Assembly: GCA_964587835.1 (NCBI GenBank)
Contig: CAZPMN010000001.1
Span: 88,968-152,967 of the forward strand
Direction of reading: 5' to 3'
Origin: an uncultured bacterium
Lineage (GTDB): Bacteria > Auribacterota > Erginobacteria > Erginobacterales > Erginobacteraceae
Length of the DNA stretch: 64,000 nt
Part shown: positions 30,744 through 39,036 of the stretch, piece by piece
Numbering within the stretch: the stretch's first letter is position 1
How the letters are laid out: each line of letters opens with the position of its first letter
Notes under the pieces: model-generated
Told to the model about the DNA's origin: nothing
Databases searched by the model: none
Seen by the model: only the letters and a program-made list of their open reading frames with translations
Program-made: the position numbers and the translations under genes

Positions 30744-31118
30744 TTATGGCCCCACGGCCGTTATCGCCCGCGCCTTGATCAAGTCCGCGACCAGCTCCAG
30801 CAAGTCCTCCCGAGCGGTTTCCTCGGGGATGGAATATTCGTCACGAACCATGGCGGCAATCTCCTCGAGGTTTCGTTGACCGTCCAGAAGGCCCCAGATG
30901 AAGGCCCCGGATTCATTCAGGGTCAGCATTTTCCCCGCCGCCTGGGTATCCCGGGAAATCGGGATCAGGATCGCCTCCCCGGCGATGACGCGGTAAACTA
31001 CGTCCGGGTTTTTCCGGAAAGTCTTCTCCATTGCATCCCTATTCATTGAATCGTCCCTGATTGCATTTGTCCTCAAGAAGTGGATAGCGTCCGGCAACCG
31101 CGGGATTAGTGAGAGCAA
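30744..31118 (-). CDS. PqqD-family protein (RiPP recognition element / peptide chaperone)
   Basis: VVYRVIAGEAILIPISRDTQAAGKMLTLNESGAFIWGLLDGQRNLEEIAAMVRDEYSIPEETAREDLLELVADL matches the PqqD (PF05402) pattern. The track start at 31118 is TTG; an ATG at 31046 is an alternative. Confidence 0.75.
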   Translation of the reverse strand: MLSLIPRLPDAIHFLRTNAIRDDSMNRDAMEKTFRKNPDVVYRVIAGEAILIPISRDTQAAGKMLTLNESGAFIWGLLDGQRNLEEIAAMVRDEYSIPEETAREDLLELVADLIKARAITAVGP

Positions 31119-32140
31119 TATGATATAGTCGGGGAAGATAAAAAGACACTAATTATCGCCTGGCCCCAATCGTCATTGAGGAGAAACCGGTTCAGCAGAG
31201 CCATTGGACCTCTATCCGGAAGCTTCCTTTTCAGAATCTTGTCCGGGGTGATAAAGATCCGGGTGATCGCCTGTTTCGCCTGGGAAGGGGCGAGTCGGCC
31301 AAGAACTGCTCGAGGGTTGGTTTGCCTGAAGAAAAGTCCCGTGAACAGAAGAGGATAATAAACCTGGGCGGCACAGTGGTATTCTTTCGCCTTTCGGCAC
31401 AGCTCCTCCCAGTCGATATCTCCACCCGATTTCTCCATCAGTAGAACAAGGTCGTAAAACCAGATCAGACGCGAGAAAGAGTGGTGGCTCAGATGAGCTG
31501 CCAGGTAGAGGAGGTTGATGGTGGGGGAGAGGACTCTGGTTTCCTGGCCCAGCAGTTGGGTCGGGAGGGAATCATTCCAGAAATCCTCGATTCGGATGGC
31601 AAATGCGGGGTTCTTTCTCTGGGCGGTCTGGAGACCGGTGTGGAGCTCCAGAAAGATTCCGGTATCGGGAAAGAGGAATTTCCCCGCCGTGGCGGTCTGT
31701 TCCTGGAGCTTGCCCCCGATTTTCTCCAGGGTCGCCCTCGCGGATTTTACATCTTGAGGATGGATCAACAGGTCAAGGTCATCGGTGGGCCGGAGAGCCG
31801 GATGGGGGTAGTAGGATTCCGCCAGGTGCCCCCCCTTGAGGACGATCGTCTCGATCCCCCGCCGGGCACAGTAATCGAGAACCGTTTGCAGGCAGTCGCC
31901 CCGAAGCACGGCAGAAATCAACTGTCTCTGATATTCATCTGCCCATTCCGTCCTCACCTGTTCGGGAAGGGGAAGTCCGGCCGGCAATTCCCGGGCAAGG
32001 AGGCTGCCCAGGCGATGGACCTTGACCAGTCTAGCCAGCCGATTCCAGGATACCTGCTTGCTTTTTGGGGGAAAAGCTTTAAAAGGACCCGGGCCCAATG
32101 CGGAGAGAAGTTCACGGAGAATATCGAGTTCGGATGACAT
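31106..32140 (-). CDS. Uncharacterised nucleotidyltransferase family protein (NTP_transf_5-like)
   Basis: IETIVLKGGHLAESYYPHPALRPTDDLDLLIHPQD signature. The ATG at 32140 with an AGGAA SD 5 nt upstream is preferred over the track start at 32197. Confidence 0.65.
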   Translation of the reverse strand: MSSELDILRELLSALGPGPFKAFPPKSKQVSWNRLARLVKVHRLGSLLARELPAGLPLPEQVRTEWADEYQRQLISAVLRGDCLQTVLDYCARRGIETIVLKGGHLAESYYPHPALRPTDDLDLLIHPQDVKSARATLEKIGGKLQEQTATAGKFLFPDTGIFLELHTGLQTAQRKNPAFAIRIEDFWNDSLPTQLLGQETRVLSPTINLLYLAAHLSHHSFSRLIWFYDLVLLMEKSGGDIDWEELCRKAKEYHCAAQVYYPLLFTGLFFRQTNPRAVLGRLAPSQAKQAITRIFITPDKILKRKLPDRGPMALLNRFLLNDDWGQAIISVFLSSPTISYCSH

Positions 32141-32197
32141 AGTATTCCTGGGATATGCCCCGTTTCGTGGTTTAATGATAATATACTGCAAAGACAT

Positions 32198-33163
32198 TTG
32201 GATAATATCGAAAGCTATTGGAAAGGAAACTTATATTCGGAATCTCAATTGAAAACGTCAAGGAACAAGCCGCCGTTGGGGAAAGGAAGTCCATATTATA
32301 CCTCCAGCGCTTTCTTCCCTTCCCTGGACAAGACAGAAGATCTTGCTCGCGCGGAGAAGGCTCTCTCGGAGCTGTACGGAGTGGAGAGAAAACGGCTCTA
32401 CCACAGGGGGTTGAAACCCCGGGATCCAGAAGTCTTTCAGAGAGATCTAAGATGGGTTCTTCACTTCATCCAGCCGCCCGCTCGAGTGCTTGAATGCGGC
32501 GCGGGAACCGGCACCTTTGCCCTTCTCCTGGCGGAGGCTGGTTTTCAGGTTACCGCGGCTGATTTATATGATCAGGACGATTTAACTTTCCTTCGTCGAA
32601 GGTATGCCTCCAGGCAAGAACTTTCCTTCGAGCATATTACAAACGTGCTGGCGGCCGGCAATCAATTCGACGCCGTTATCAGCATCAATGTCTTGGAACA
32701 TATTGTCTTCCCTGACCAGGCGATACGACAGTGGAAAAAATTGGTTCGAGTTGGGGGAACCCTGTCTATTATCTGCCCCAATTATTCGGGGATACTTTCT
32801 CCCCTGAGAATCGCATTTAACATTATACGAGGTGGTTCGAAGTGGAGGTATCGGGGGGTGGGGCAGGCGCTTGGTCATTGTCTGGAAAATATCGTATTGA
32901 ACATCAGGATTGCTTTAACCGGACAGCCAGTCTTTGTTCGCTGTATGCCTCGCCTGGACTCCGGTAAGATTAAAATGAACGACAGCGACCTCGATACGGT
33001 GCATCTGCCTTCAACCCGGGGGATCGCAAATTTCCTCTGTCGAGAACAATTTGAAATAGTTTCGTGGCGGAGATCGTATGGGAAATTAGGGAAGCGTGCT
33101 GTCTCCGCCCTCTTCCCCGGGCAGGTTCCGACGATGCGAATCCAGGTCCGACTGAGGCAGTAA
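32198..33163 (+). CDS. Class I SAM-dependent methyltransferase
   Basis: Motif I VLECGAGTGTFALLLAEAGFQVTAADL; LVRVGGTLSII. TTG start in the track. Confidence 0.7.
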   Translation: MDNIESYWKGNLYSESQLKTSRNKPPLGKGSPYYTSSAFFPSLDKTEDLARAEKALSELYGVERKRLYHRGLKPRDPEVFQRDLRWVLHFIQPPARVLECGAGTGTFALLLAEAGFQVTAADLYDQDDLTFLRRRYASRQELSFEHITNVLAAGNQFDAVISINVLEHIVFPDQAIRQWKKLVRVGGTLSIICPNYSGILSPLRIAFNIIRGGSKWRYRGVGQALGHCLENIVLNIRIALTGQPVFVRCMPRLDSGKIKMNDSDLDTVHLPSTRGIANFLCREQFEIVSWRRSYGKLGKRAVSALFPGQVPTMRIQVRLRQ

Positions 33164-37796: not shown

Positions 37797-37808
37797 CAAC
37801 GATCGTTC

Positions 37809-37967
37809 TCAAGTGTTGGGGCAAGCCGTGAGGTTGCAGGGGATACCGAATTCCGAATCATAGGGCGTGGTGATGGAAGGAGTATTGCAGACCGCCATCT
37901 GGGCGGTATTGAAGCTGAGCTCAACGACCTTGAGTTCGGGTTTTCGGTAGAGCTTTTTCTTTTTCAT
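37809..37967 (-). CDS. Candidate RiPP precursor peptide (52 aa): MKKKKLYRKPELKVVELSFNTAQMAVCNTPSITTPYDSEFGIPCNLTACPNT
   Basis: Found by manual translation of the minus strand between the rSAM and kinase genes; it is not in the ORF track because it is shorter than 60 aa. AGGAGG lies 7 nt upstream of the ATG at 37967. The start overlaps the 3' end of the rSAM gene by 47 nt in another frame. The Lys-rich leader with a KPELKVVELSF segment resembles the PqqA leader (KKPAFIDLRLGLEVT); the core has 3 Cys. Confidence 0.4.
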   Translation of the reverse strand: MKKKKLYRKPELKVVELSFNTAQMAVCNTPSITTPYDSEFGIPCNLTACPNT

Positions 37968-39036
37968 CGTCTTTCCTCCTGGTTTCCTTGAGCAATATAG
38001 CCCGAAGGTGGGTGACCTGGCAAAGGAATTCTACCGGTTTTTCCGGCGTTCCGTTCTCCAGGGTGGACCAGGCCGGACAGACGTTACAGATCCCCCGGAG
38101 CTCACAGTCGTTGCATCTGTTCGGCTCCCTGGTTACTTCATTTCTGACCCGGGGGATGAACTGATCCCATCCCTCGCGGAAGCTCCCCCGGATCAGATTG
38201 TAACGAAAGTTGGTATCCAGAACGCAGAGACCGAGCTGGCCAGAGGAGGAGACGTGGAAAGAACAGAGTCCTCCGCCGCATTTATAAAGTCGGTCCGATT
38301 TTACCGGCCCCCATTTCCGGCAGTCAAAGGAAAGCCAGGCCCGCCACTTATCCGGATCTTCGTAATCGAGCTCGATGACCTCCTGCGGGGAGAGACGGTA
38401 GCCGGTACCGCTGCGGGAACCGTTCAACTGGGCGCAGATCAGGGCGTCGAATCGGAAATCCTTCCCGTAGTCGGCCGCCAGTTTTCTCATCTGCCGGATT
38501 TCCTGTCGGTTGACGGTATTGATGACCGACCTAAAACTGAAAGAGATGTCTCTCTCCGCGAGCAGATCAATAGCCTGCCGGAATTGCCGGTAACTGCCCG
38601 GCACCCCGGAAATTTTCTCGTACGTCTCTTCAGTGGCGCCGAGCAGGCTGATGTCGATCTGATATGGAGGATACCGGTCCAGAAAATCCGCTATCTCCCG
38701 GTCGATCAGTGTTCCGTTGGTGAAGACGTTTATCAAGAAACCTTTTTTTATAGCGTACTGATAGATGGAACGAAAATCATCCCGGATGAACGGTTCTCCC
38801 CCGCTGAAGGTGAGACAGAGCCCCCCCCGATCGGCGATCTGGTCTATGAGAGAGCAGACCTGCTTCCGGCTCAACTCCTCTTCCGGCGGGGTCTGACGGG
38901 CGAAACCAACGTAACAGTACGGACAGCGGAGATTGCATCTCCGGGTCAATTCAATCATCCCCAGCAGGGGGAGATGGTCTCTCCGCGCTTTTTCCCAGAG
39001 TGAGAATTCAACCGCGCTCTCGATGGGGGGAGGCAT
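37921..39036 (-). CDS. Radical SAM / SPASM-domain peptide-modifying enzyme (PqqE/anSME-like)
   Basis: CNLRCPYCYV (CxxxCxxC), LTFSGGEPF, C-terminal SPASM cysteines CGGGLCSFHVSSSGQLGLC and CNDCELRGICNVCPAW. Confidence 0.85.
   Translation of the reverse strand: MPPPIESAVEFSLWEKARRDHLPLLGMIELTRRCNLRCPYCYVGFARQTPPEEELSRKQVCSLIDQIADRGGLCLTFSGGEPFIRDDFRSIYQYAIKKGFLINVFTNGTLIDREIADFLDRYPPYQIDISLLGATEETYEKISGVPGSYRQFRQAIDLLAERDISFSFRSVINTVNRQEIRQMRKLAADYGKDFRFDALICAQLNGSRSGTGYRLSPQEVIELDYEDPDKWRAWLSFDCRKWGPVKSDRLYKCGGGLCSFHVSSSGQLGLCVLDTNFRYNLIRGSFREGWDQFIPRVRNEVTREPNRCNDCELRGICNVCPAWSTLENGTPEKPVEFLCQVTHLRAILLKETRRKDDEKEKALPKTRTQGR

Follow-up and report, generated by a model that had tools for sequence, protein, structure and literature searches.

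The window, a 64,000-nucleotide stretch of DNA from an uncultured Auribacterota bacterium, carries a set of peptide-modification genes on its minus strand (positions 30744-39036), and the coordinates of all gene calls were checked. A precursor gene of 52 amino acids and six maturation genes are kept together as a conserved block, which abuts a dedicated WecA/MraY-type transferase and glycosyltransferases with 4-nt gaps and overlaps (Table 1). The coordinates showed that GT1c, GT4b, GT4a and the radical SAM gene are joined in this manner, with GT4a lying 4 nt from the radical SAM gene. The surroundings form a polysaccharide locus encoding Wza, Wzc, two Wzy_C proteins, a flippase, many GT1/GT4/GT9 glycosyltransferases, two deacetylases and two WecA/MraY-type transferases. 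The gene set claimed for this region by the first-pass annotation held in position and strand, with the exception of the SAM methyltransferase, which was excluded from the cassette because it lies on the opposite strand and was found in this window only, being absent at its position from all other cassette loci compared. An FAD amine-oxidase-like gene (27809-29131) was not conserved.

Table 1. Positions and supporting matches of the cassette genes and their neighbours in the window
Feature	Coordinates	Strand	Match or remark
PMT_2 (GT-C) glycosyltransferase	29088..30728	-	directly after PqqD
Discrete PqqD-type peptide-binding protein (RRE), 95 aa	30744..31031	-	PF05402, 66.4 bits (cutoff 23.4)
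PF14907 (NTP_transf_5) nucleotidyltransferase	31106..32197	-	PF14907, 161 bits
SAM methyltransferase	32198..33163	+	opposite strand; outside conserved cassette
Membrane-anchored PorU-like C25 cysteine peptidase, 1008 aa	33214..36240	-	PF01364, 256 bits, plus Propeptide_C25
Soluble Sec11/SipW-type (S26B) serine peptidase, 177 aa	36397..36930	-	TIGR02228, 38.1 (cutoff 51.85)
ScmC-family P-loop kinase, PEPCK/HprK fold, 290 aa	36927..37799	-	PF27840 'ScmC' (precomputed Pfam annotation)
Precursor peptide, 52 aa	37809..37967	-	MKKKKLYRKPELKVVELSFNTAQMAVCNTPSITTPYDSEFGIPCNLTACPNT
Radical SAM/SPASM peptide maturase, 371 aa	37921..39036	-	PF04055, 91.6 bits
GT4a, WecA/MraY-family polyprenyl-phosphate sugar-phosphate transferase	39041..40102	-	PF00953, 133.8 bits; co-inherited with cassette
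GT4b, second WecA/MraY-family paralogue	40099..41151	-	
GT1-family glycosyltransferase	41156..42310	-	55-77% identity in relatives

The precursor combines a basic N-terminus with a YxxPxL leader motif and a three-cysteine core. The first 47 nt of its gene lie within the 3' end of the radical SAM gene, with an AGGAGG Shine-Dalgarno sequence upstream, and the ORF was also called by an independent gene caller. Seventeen distinct homologues were found, all in the same slot between the radical SAM and kinase genes, and homologous precursors were also present in distant loci. Common to the 17 are a lasso-like YxxPx[VL] leader, three invariant cysteine residues and a hydroxyl residue (near-invariant Thr/Ser) at position +2 from Cys1; the C-termini are variable and short, ending 1-5 residues past Cys3. 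Across at least 17 variants, the core of ~25 residues keeps several other conserved positions besides the three cysteine residues. Two to four synonymous codons are used for the invariant residues Y, P, L, F and C, and 1,059 synonymous codon differences were counted. Given these homologues and the invariant residues kept under several synonymous codons, the precursor gene, so far only a candidate, is real.

The radical SAM/SPASM protein contains a CX3CX2C motif (C34/C38/C41), and alignment revealed eight further invariant C-terminal cysteine residues in a SPASM-type pattern. Its matches to MftC, StsB, PqqE and ScmE were sub-threshold, and the closest solved structures were SkfB (E=2.5e-16), PqqE and CteB. 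The reaction that it catalyses is undetermined, because its scores for the heme, mycofactocin, PQQ and sactipeptide maturases were all sub-threshold and about the same. The PqqD-type protein, whose ORF continues to 31118, had sub-threshold matches to the lasso, SCM and GeoRSP PqqD models, and its gene was the last of the cassette in all complete loci. The nucleotidyltransferase, the true start of which is likely to be at 32140, has K121-G122, D140 and D142 as invariant residues in the alignment.

One rival reading of these enzymes is that the product of the cassette is not a peptide but a small cofactor derived from one, in the manner of PQQ or mycofactocin. In its favour, the pathways for PQQ and mycofactocin are likewise laid out with PqqD, a PqqE/MftC-like radical SAM enzyme and peptidases, and the top sub-threshold radical SAM matches include MftC and PqqE. 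Mycofactocin is also glycosylated. However, in cofactor precursors conservation is limited to the few residues put to use, whereas here a core of ~25 residues is kept in its many variants; in addition, the cassette loci contain no conserved redox partner enzymes, the FAD amine-oxidase-like gene included, and every cofactor family threshold was failed. We thus regard this reading as very unlikely.

The kinase has GGGKST as its Walker A motif, and H139, G157-x-G159-K160-S-T162, D179 and G-T-P-W are invariant. Its profile matches to HprK and PEPCK were weak, as were those to the NCBIfam models (ScmC 20.5, HprK_rel_A 17.2 and HprK_rel_B 16.3 bits), and neither it nor the S26 peptidase of the window alone attained any curated threshold. 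The AlphaFold model of the kinase (pLDDT 91) matched PEPCK (E=1.5e-6) and HprK/P (E=4.9e-4). Thus the PqqD and nucleotidyltransferase assignments of the first-pass annotation held (PF05402 and PF14907), and its HprK-like kinase held at the superfamily and fold level; the description of that kinase as lacking the HprK N-domain needs correction, as the N-terminus forms a beta-rich domain of its own.

The S26 peptidase gene begins with a 4-nt overlap with the stop codon of the kinase gene. The family profile matched human SEC11C/A (E=1e-4), the catalytic motifs SMHP, HRV and TKGD..D being aligned, SMHPF, HRV and KGD are invariant, and a homologue scored above the TIGR02228 cutoff. Although SM-x-P, HRV and TKGD..D are thus common to the cassette enzyme and the Sec11/SipW-type signal peptidase I (S26B) SEC11A/C, segment prediction for this protein gave no transmembrane segment, so that the membrane anchor of the signal peptidases is missing, and in one lineage the peptidase is fused to the cytoplasmic kinase. 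We therefore infer that it is a cytoplasmic leader peptidase and not a secretory signal peptidase. In the localisation check, transmembrane segments were found only in the C25 peptidase and the GT4 transferases. The C25 peptidase, with invariant GHG and TC-x-NG motifs, has one such segment at its N-terminus (residues 4-30). Its match to PorU, the C25-family sortase of type IX secretion, reached 239 bits, short of the cutoff of 420, and exceeded the catalytic domain (model positions 2-732); as in PorU, the catalytic His and Cys are conserved and the enzyme is extracytoplasmic. It differs in its N-terminal membrane anchor, in leaving the model positions beyond 732 of 1095 unmatched, in its PVC-group host and in a precursor without a C-terminal sorting domain. 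The Auribacterota cassette contains no conserved exporter, which leaves the route of the peptide to this extracytoplasmic peptidase unexplained.

All orthologous loci with sufficient flanking sequence, on 12 or more distinct Auribacterota/PVC contigs (kinase identity 38-51%), have the order PNPT(GT4a)-rSAM-precursor-kinase-S26-C25-NTase-PqqD, which survives inserted toxin-antitoxin, DUF and mobile genes. Such co-localisation is far beyond chance. The GT4a orthologue group comprises 28 clusters at >=51% identity, followed by a gap to <=44%, and the kinase group likewise comprises 28 clusters; as an independent anchor check, three of three new loci found via GT4a carried the cassette. GT4b was present in most cassette loci (missing from L011, L012 and L040), and the GT1-family glycosyltransferase lay upstream of the transferases in every case. 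As an observation, then, it is confirmed that the locus is a genuine, conserved and apparently undescribed RiPP operon in polysaccharide genes; no paper on the operon was found in the literature, and no curated family threshold was met.

In lasso peptides, whose leaders carry YxxPxL, HPr-kinase homologues phosphorylate precursor serine residues, one of them internal, and in pseudomycoidin a PF14907 enzyme adds a hexose to the peptide phosphate. The cassette shares with these systems (paeninodin PadeK, pseudomycoidin PsmK/PsmN and Bradymonas BsfK/BsfN) a discrete PqqD-type protein, the YxxPxL leader, an HPr-kinase-like P-loop kinase for precursor Ser/Thr and a PF14907 phosphate-modifying nucleotidyltransferase. 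However, it has neither a lasso cyclase nor a B2 transglutaminase-type protease, and has instead the radical SAM/SPASM enzyme, the Sec11-like serine peptidase and the C25 peptidase; its core has three cysteine residues and no conserved C-terminal Ser, its kinase is only distantly related (ScmC family) and it is set in a glycan operon. The trio of ScmC/HprK-like kinase, PqqD and radical SAM/SPASM enzyme also occurs in the SynChlorMet (ScmC/D/E/F), GeoRSP and HprK-related kinase A/B neighbourhoods (NCBIfam families TIGR04248-04251, TIGR04302/04303 and TIGR04352/04355), all uncharacterised, and Pfam ScmC (PF27840) covers the cassette kinase. The cutoffs of these families were widely missed (20.5 vs 125, 26.4 vs 100, 86 vs 400 and 16-17 vs 200 bits). 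In contrast with these neighbourhoods, the cassette has one radical SAM enzyme and not two, an identified precursor family, additional S26B, C25 and PF14907 enzymes and a polysaccharide-locus setting. The sactipeptide and ranthipeptide maturases (SkfB, CteB, StsB and PapB) have in common with it a radical SAM/SPASM enzyme and a Cys-containing core, and one related precursor weakly matched the StsA sactipeptide model; here, however, the peptide-binding domain is a separate protein and not an N-terminal fusion, the kinase, nucleotidyltransferase and peptidase partners are foreign to those systems, and no thioether has been demonstrated.

On balance, we lean towards a product that is a Cys-crosslinked, phosphorylated peptide with its phosphate further modified, tied to envelope glycan synthesis; the chemistry is inferred, as are the target residues, crosslink type and cleavage sites, and none of it has been observed. 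PqqD would bind the YxxPx[VL] leader and present the core to the radical SAM/SPASM enzyme, which would crosslink it via the three invariant cysteine residues, most likely by thioethers of the sacti- or ranthipeptide type. The soluble ScmC kinase may phosphorylate a core Ser/Thr, the best candidate being the near-invariant residue at Cys1 +2, and the PF14907 enzyme may add to this phosphate a hexose, as in pseudomycoidin, or a nucleotidyl group. Cytoplasmic removal of the leader would fall to the soluble Sec11-like peptidase, with the cut probably placed immediately ahead of the core, at the small residue conserved in ...[ML]-[GA]-x-C, and the C25 peptidase would act on the exported product outside the membrane. 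The product may bear sugar via its phosphate, or be required in polymer assembly or regulation.

An exhaustive HMM search placed the kinase in a large unannotated family (1,432 representatives, E<=1e-30). Informative sampled members adjoin an S26 peptidase, and where the contig extends upstream their loci also have PqqD, rSAM and a homologous precursor, so that the arrangement PqqD-rSAM-precursor-kinase-S26 recurs. In the distant relatives L043/L044, a kinase::S26 fusion is followed by a C25/PorU-like protein, and the only glycan genes, GT2 and GlmS, are on the opposite strand, with a transposase between them and the module; L046, also distant, has no glycan genes within its 5 kb, and still more distant kinase-PqqD-rSAM sets adjoin uvrC. 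An Omnitrophota locus reads Wza-PqqD-rSAM-precursor-kinase-S26-PF14907-...-Wzc-Wzy-Wzx, its rSAM being 44% identical with that of the window, and it retains the PF14907 nucleotidyltransferase, as do all complete loci. The polysaccharide association outside Auribacterota rests on this single locus.

It is possible that the cassette is a stand-alone RiPP cluster, for a bacteriocin or signal peptide, nested by chance in the glycan locus: the crosslinked, phosphorylated peptide would have no chemical or functional coupling to polysaccharide, and the linkage would reflect vertical inheritance of one long locus. The flanking GT1 and GT4 genes are common to all Auribacterota loci, so common descent could explain the linkage, and L043/L044 and L046, without clear glycan neighbours, and the sets beside uvrC speak for it. 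However, the GT4a orthologue group is discrete, always adjacent and as large as that of the kinase, the 4-nt gaps and overlaps tie the four genes together, the order withstands mobile-gene insertions, and the different polysaccharide neighbours of the Omnitrophota module are not explained by inheriting the Auribacterota locus. The presence of the module within polysaccharide loci of two phyla suggests that peptide and sugar polymer work together, and joint action with envelope polysaccharide is the most likely role of the product, although the Auribacterota linkage could partly be vertical inheritance of the whole locus.

Among the broader claims of the first-pass annotation, the link to polysaccharide synthesis was strengthened by the co-inherited WecA/MraY-type transferase and the module in a second phylum, and the alternative of scattered housekeeping genes was not borne out, as the genes are co-localised wherever orthologues exist. 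That they form a complete system for a modified peptide is supported as an interpretation, with no chemistry demonstrated. The statement that no characterised example was known held in part, as the pair of kinase and PF14907 enzyme is characterised in lasso peptides (paeninodin, pseudomycoidin and Bsf), and the TIGRFAM families that it named were not matched at their thresholds, none of the TIGR04352/4355/4249 cutoffs being reached.

A more specific rival, which we consider unlikely, has the peptide covalently priming or anchoring the polysaccharide. A Thr-phosphate-sugar or Thr-pyrophosphate-nucleoside handle, built by the kinase and nucleotidyltransferase, would be used by the glycosyltransferases of the locus or the dedicated WecA/MraY-like enzyme, and peptide and glycan would be exported as a single conjugate, which the C25 peptidase would trim. 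The succession of kinase, nucleotidyltransferase and WecA/MraY-type transferase mirrors the logic of sugar activation, the pseudomycoidin enzyme puts a hexose on a peptide phosphate, GT4a is co-inherited one-to-one with the cassette, Wzx/Wzy/Wza machinery is nearby in the absence of a dedicated peptide exporter, and recurring alkaline-phosphatase-superfamily membrane enzymes also fit. This reading is, however, purely inferential, and no such conjugate is known to us; the Omnitrophota module lacks a GT4 within 10 kb, leader-side cleavage would leave the leader and not the core on the enzyme, and the short, variable precursor C-termini offer no sorting signal for PorU-type transpeptidation. The modified peptide acting with envelope polysaccharide thus remains our preferred reading.

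With regard to the neighbouring genes, the alkaline-phosphatase-superfamily enzymes were repeatedly found within or beside the cassette, and related loci have a PMT_2 glycosyltransferase as in the window, but at different positions.

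The first-pass annotation had proposed a RiPP-like cassette inside an exopolysaccharide locus, and the PqqD, nucleotidyltransferase, methyltransferase, C25 peptidase, S26 peptidase, P-loop and radical SAM genes that it named were all found where it had placed them. In the alignment, the nucleotidyltransferase retained the G-G...D-x-D motif. The C25 peptidase scored 239.3 bits against the PorU model NF033707, under the cutoff of 420; it has a single N-terminal membrane anchor and an invariant catalytic pair, GHG and TC-x-NG. The S26-like peptidase of the window reached 38.1 bits with TIGR02228, short of the 51.85 cutoff. 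In the alignment of its family, SMHPF, HRV and KGD..D were invariant, which are the catalytic Ser, His and Asp motifs of S26B, and the family profile matched human SEC11C and SEC11A among PDB sequences at E=1e-4, with just these catalytic motifs aligned. Its maximum 19-residue hydropathy was 0.98, so that it has no transmembrane segment, whereas Sec11/SipW signal peptidase I (S26B) has a membrane anchor and an extracytoplasmic active site. The radical SAM enzyme contains CX3CX2C (C34/C38/C41) and eight more invariant C-terminal cysteine residues, as for SPASM auxiliary clusters, and its nearest solved structures are SkfB, PqqE and CteB.

Features of the cassette, its surroundings and related loci (window positions unless a numbered locus is named)
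Feature	Position	Strand	Length	Match or description
PqqD	30744-31031	minus		PF05402, 66.4 bits (cutoff 23.4)
PF14907 nucleotidyltransferase	31106-32197	minus		161 bits
SAM methyltransferase	32198-33163	plus		
C25 peptidase	33214-36240	minus	1008 aa	256 bits
S26-like peptidase	36397-36930	minus	177 aa	
P-loop protein (kinase)	36927-37799	minus	290 aa	
Precursor ORF	37809-37967	minus	52 aa	between radical SAM and P-loop genes
Radical SAM enzyme	37921-39036	minus		
Kinase::S26 fusion, P0191	L043 8001-9392; L044 458-1849		463 aa	ScmC-like kinase plus S24/S26 peptidase
Sigma-70-like site	38023-37994	minus		TTGCCA-18 nt-TATATT
Insertions between cassette genes	L002 15908-16601; L004 12314-12849, 16289-16615; L042 14091-14560, 17861-18175			
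TPR protein	23-1201			
Lamin-tail protein	1509-8771	plus	2420 aa	four lamin-tail domains, FG-GAP repeat
ORF	9096-10823		575 aa	
Outer-membrane protein	11063-12199	plus		BBP2_2; TIGR03016 (PEP-CTERM-associated), 60 bits
Wza	13069-14010	plus		pepcterm_export, 159.5 (cutoff 180)
Wza and Wzc	13069-15978	plus		
FAD amine-oxidase-like gene	27809-29131	plus		
Sulfatase/EptA-like protein	46829-48343	minus	504 aa	
Sulfatase/EptA-like relatives	L002 16598-18373; L041 17761-19497; L040 20811-21086			
DnaK	51784-53718	plus		
Antisense ORF	52660-53745	minus		PF10712, 259 bits

The P-loop protein alone gave only weak matches of 16-20 bits to ScmC and to HprK-related kinases A and B, and fell short of TIGR04352/04355 (HprK-related kinase A/B), with 17.2 and 16.3 bits against a cutoff of 200 each. 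In a precomputed annotation, Pfam PF27840 'ScmC' was given for the window kinase with the mark 'weak' and for nearly all of its homologues without that mark; a separate Pfam search of the window kinase found no PF27840 match. An alignment of homologues (n=26) revealed an invariant His, GxGKST, an acidic [ED]D and G-T-P-W. Sequence-profile matches to HprK and PEPCK in the PDB were marginal and a fold search was needed, in which the AlphaFold model (pLDDT 91, pTM 0.88) matched PEP carboxykinase at E=1.5e-6 and HPr kinase/phosphorylase (1knx) at E=4.9e-4. The PEPCK fold is common to the HprK catalytic domain. Thus the conserved His, the Walker A and acidic motifs and the fold match show that this protein belongs to the HPr kinase/PEPCK-fold kinases.

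The closest kinase homologues came from Candidatus Auribacterota and 'PVC group' metagenome-assembled genomes; together with the clustering of DnaK (below), this places the window in an Auribacterota bacterium. A word-index search (28 clusters) had suggested that the family is rare, and this was overturned when an HMM built from the kinase alignment was searched exhaustively; it returned 1,432 sequence-cluster representatives at E<=1e-30, 10,473 at E<=1e-10 and 19,524 at E<=1e-3. The Auribacterota clade provided only about eight top matches, followed by full-length relatives at 180-245 bits; the clade is small and the superfamily large. Fifty wider relatives gave weak matches, none at any curated NCBIfam cutoff. 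Named members among those sampled were from uncultured Auribacterota, Omnitrophota, Nitrospinota and Aminicenantes, and 'hypothetical protein' was the only name that databases gave for sampled members.

The precursor ORF shares 47 nt with the 3′ end of the radical SAM gene and is preceded by an AGGAGG ribosome-binding site. The lone 52-residue sequence, used as query in a word-index search, matched nothing but itself, and there was no second copy in the window. Using tblastn and ORF reading of the related loci, we recovered 17 distinct precursors, which have in common a basic N-terminus, the leader Y-x-[KRP]-P-[EQ]-[VLIM]-[KRT]-x-x-[ED]-L-x-F, a [QLM]-[ML]-[GA]-x stretch preceding Cys1, and the core C-[HNS]-[TS]-...-C-x4-C. 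The Y, P, L, F and three Cys are invariant, each being encoded by 2-4 different codons, and there were 1,059 synonymous codon differences across 3,400 codon pairs, indicating that the ORF is under protein-level selection. Precursors of the wider family, from the distant loci L043/L044, L045 and L046, carry Y-x-x-P-x-[VIM]-K-x-[VI]-x-L, then ...L-[GTA]-x-C-K-T..., with three Cys, and are clearly homologous to the window precursor. In both tiers, the only near-invariant hydroxyl is the Thr/Ser two residues past Cys1 (C-H-T or C-K-T), the L045 precursor being the exception. A PQQ- or mycofactocin-like cofactor as the product is very unlikely, the long conserved three-Cys core speaking against it. 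Several lineages, Omnitrophota (L049) among them, show the same overlap between precursor start and radical SAM 3′ end. A sigma-70-like site, a consensus match only, lies inside the radical SAM 3′ end approximately 27 nt upstream of the precursor start and is a possible internal promoter for the precursor.

Related loci were gathered by exact-protein lookup, a scan of species-representative genomes and a metagenome scan. All loci that had a kinase orthologue (36-51% identity) and sufficient flanking sequence showed the order GT1c-(GT4b)-GT4a-rSAM-precursor-kinase-S26-C25-PF14907-PqqD on one strand, where GT1c is a GT1-family glycosyltransferase and GT4a and GT4b are WecA/MraY-family transferases. 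This order was unchanged despite genes inserted in some relatives (PhdYeFM/PIN toxin-antitoxin pairs, DUF4160/DUF2442, DUF4258, small NTP_transf_2 genes and others). The methyltransferase, seen only in the window among the compared loci, was ruled out as a cassette component because it is not conserved. With GT4a as an independent search anchor, homologues at >=51% identity formed a group of 28 clusters, set apart from the rest by a gap to <=44%; the cluster count equals that of the kinase group in a comparable search, and the new loci found in this way all carried the whole cassette (3/3). In the window, the genes from GT1c through GT4b, GT4a, rSAM, precursor and kinase to S26 are separated by gaps of 4-9 nt or overlap, suggesting from the coordinates that they form a single transcript. 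Terminator-like sites were no more frequent than by chance (20 against 19.7 expected), so the operon ends could not be set from them, and Rfam and tRNA scans of the window gave no matches. Two loci from the MAG PWXJ01 (isolate CSSed11_89; L008 and L010) hold different cassette copies with different precursors, reflecting either a true duplication or a strain mix in the bin.

More distant loci retain parts of the module. In L043/L044, the order is PqqD, rSAM, a 60-residue precursor, a kinase::S26 fusion and a 1216-residue PorU-like C25 protein carrying Laminin_G_3 and DUF2341 regions. L046 has PqqD, rSAM, two precursors, the kinase and an S24/S26 peptidase which passes TIGR02228 (63.5 bits compared with 51.85), L045 has precursor, kinase and S26, and L048 has the kinase and an S24-like gene. 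The gene fusion and this recurrence establish the kinase and the Sec11-like peptidase as core partners. C25 lies downstream of kinase/S26 in L043/L044, the sole distant locus with enough downstream flank, and none of the kinase, Sec11-like peptidase and C25 peptidase is a passenger gene. In Acidobacteriota, more distant kinase-like genes accompany PqqD and rSAM adjoining uvrC, without S26 or C25; these are other subfamilies.

At the gene level, the short precursor gene beside the maturase, with its conserved leader and more variable core, PqqD and the rSAM cysteine pattern meet the criteria for a radical SAM/SPASM RiPP with an RRE, modification of the peptide itself being inferred. The systems most similar in working are kinase/nucleotidyltransferase-tailored lasso peptides together with a sacti-/ranthipeptide-type maturase. 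Lasso clusters, like the cassette, have a YxxPxL leader, which is offered to a discrete PqqD-type RRE. However, neither a lasso cyclase (Asn-synthetase-like) nor a B2 transglutaminase-type leader protease is encoded by any gene of the conserved block, and lasso membership is thereby ruled out. A kinase-PqqD-rSAM trio is shared with SynChlorMet and GeoRSP, both uncharacterised, whose curated cutoffs were missed: for SynChlorMet (TIGR04248-04251), ScmC gave 20.5 against 125 bits, ScmD 26.4 against 100 and ScmE/F 86.3 against 400, and for GeoRSP (TIGR04302/04303) the scores were 25.6 against 100 and 74.9 against 400 bits. SynChlorMet also has two radical SAM/SPASM genes, whereas the cassette has one. 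Assignment to the sactipeptide/ranthipeptide type rests on indirect evidence only, the three invariant Cys and the SkfB/CteB structures. A sulfatase-maturase reading (Cys to formylglycine) was ruled out because the core C-[HN]-T-P is unlike C-x-P-x-R. A literature search found no paper describing the cassette or module, and the paper describing Auribacterota genomes does not mention it.

Gene content, conservation, predicted localisation, catalytic motifs and precursor architecture are shown, and the modification chemistry that follows is inferred. PqqD would bind the YxxP leader, and the radical SAM/SPASM enzyme would then make crosslinks through the three Cys, most likely thioethers in view of its SkfB/CteB/StsB relatives. 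The kinase may next phosphorylate a core hydroxyl, for which the Thr/Ser after Cys1 is the candidate; in lasso systems, HPr-kinase homologues phosphorylate the precursor at a C-terminal or an internal Ser. The PF14907 enzyme would modify this phosphate, as for pseudomycoidin, where such an enzyme adds one or two hexoses. The soluble Sec11-like enzyme is predicted to cut off the leader in the cytoplasm, and the anchored C25 enzyme would act outside the membrane. Substrates of the type IX sortase PorU carry a C-terminal sorting domain, whereas the cassette precursors end 1-5 variable residues past Cys3; cleavage of a PorU-style sorting signal is thus unlikely. No transporter is conserved inside the Auribacterota cassette, and export is the main gap of the mechanism. 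In this scheme, the large ScmC/HprK-like kinase family gains a precursor family and a complete enzyme set, kinase plus PF14907 chemistry, so far known only as lasso-peptide tailoring, would extend to radical-SAM-modified peptides, and two unusual proteases, soluble Sec11-like and PorU-like C25, would be added to peptide maturation.

The polysaccharide locus occupies 29-51 kb of the window. Its plus strand encodes Wza, a Wzc-type chain-length/tyrosine-kinase protein, two Wzy_C proteins and a flippase, and its minus strand a long GT9/GT1 run, two polysaccharide deacetylases, a formyltransferase-like gene and two WecA/MraY-family transferases; the cassette sits within this minus-strand glycosyltransferase run. 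In a Candidatus Omnitrophota locus (L049), the order is Wza-PqqD-rSAM-precursor-kinase-S24/S26-PF14907, followed by an ABC-2 transporter on the opposite strand, Wzc, Wzy_C and a Wzx flippase (identity to the window: rSAM 44%, PqqD 38%, S26 34%, PF14907 27% and kinase 26%). Thus, in a single example, a polysaccharide locus of a second phylum also houses the module together with its nucleotidyltransferase, among other neighbours. It remains possible that this is a stand-alone RiPP cluster nested by descent in a glycan locus; L043/L044 and L046 have no clear glycan context, and inheritance of the Auribacterota locus fails to explain the L049 arrangement. A bolder reading, compatible with the data although we consider it unlikely, is that the modified peptide is covalently joined to envelope polysaccharide. 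In that case, the kinase and PF14907 enzyme would provide a Thr-phosphate-linked handle, either sugar or nucleotide, for the co-inherited WecA/MraY-type transferase and glycosyltransferases to build on or transfer; export of the conjugate would go through the Wzx/Wzy/Wza machinery, with trimming by the PorU-like C25. If true, this would be a new way to prime or anchor bacterial polysaccharide and a new RiPP class in several uncultured phyla. We regard the cassette as a radical SAM/RRE RiPP pathway whose enzyme set is unusual and whose recurring association with polysaccharide loci is unexplained; because that association spans two phyla, a role of the peptide as glycan component, primer or regulator is directly testable.

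Several further features of the surroundings were observed. The outer-membrane protein, Wza and Wzc resemble an XrtA/PEP-CTERM-type polysaccharide locus, and the scanned window ORFs included no exosortase. The giant lamin-tail protein, with the TPR protein and the unassigned 575-residue ORF nearby, is encoded a short way upstream of the genes for polysaccharide export. Several cassette loci encode membrane proteins whose weak sulfatase/EptA-like domain belongs to the alkaline-phosphatase superfamily: members of 578-591 residues with 62% mutual identity lie between nucleotidyltransferase and PqqD in L002 and L041, a sulfatase-family gene immediately follows PqqD in L040, and the window protein is a distant relative of the L002/L041 members (25% identity, E=4e-10). 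The FAD amine-oxidase-like gene, not seen in related loci, converges on a PMT_2 gene with a 44-nt overlap at its 3′ end. The ORF matching PF10712 'NAD-specific glutamate dehydrogenase' runs antisense to the DnaK gene; since PF10712 is known as a spurious antisense family, the ORF is no gene. The DnaK product itself and its counterpart in Candidatus Erginobacter occultus share one 90% identity cluster.
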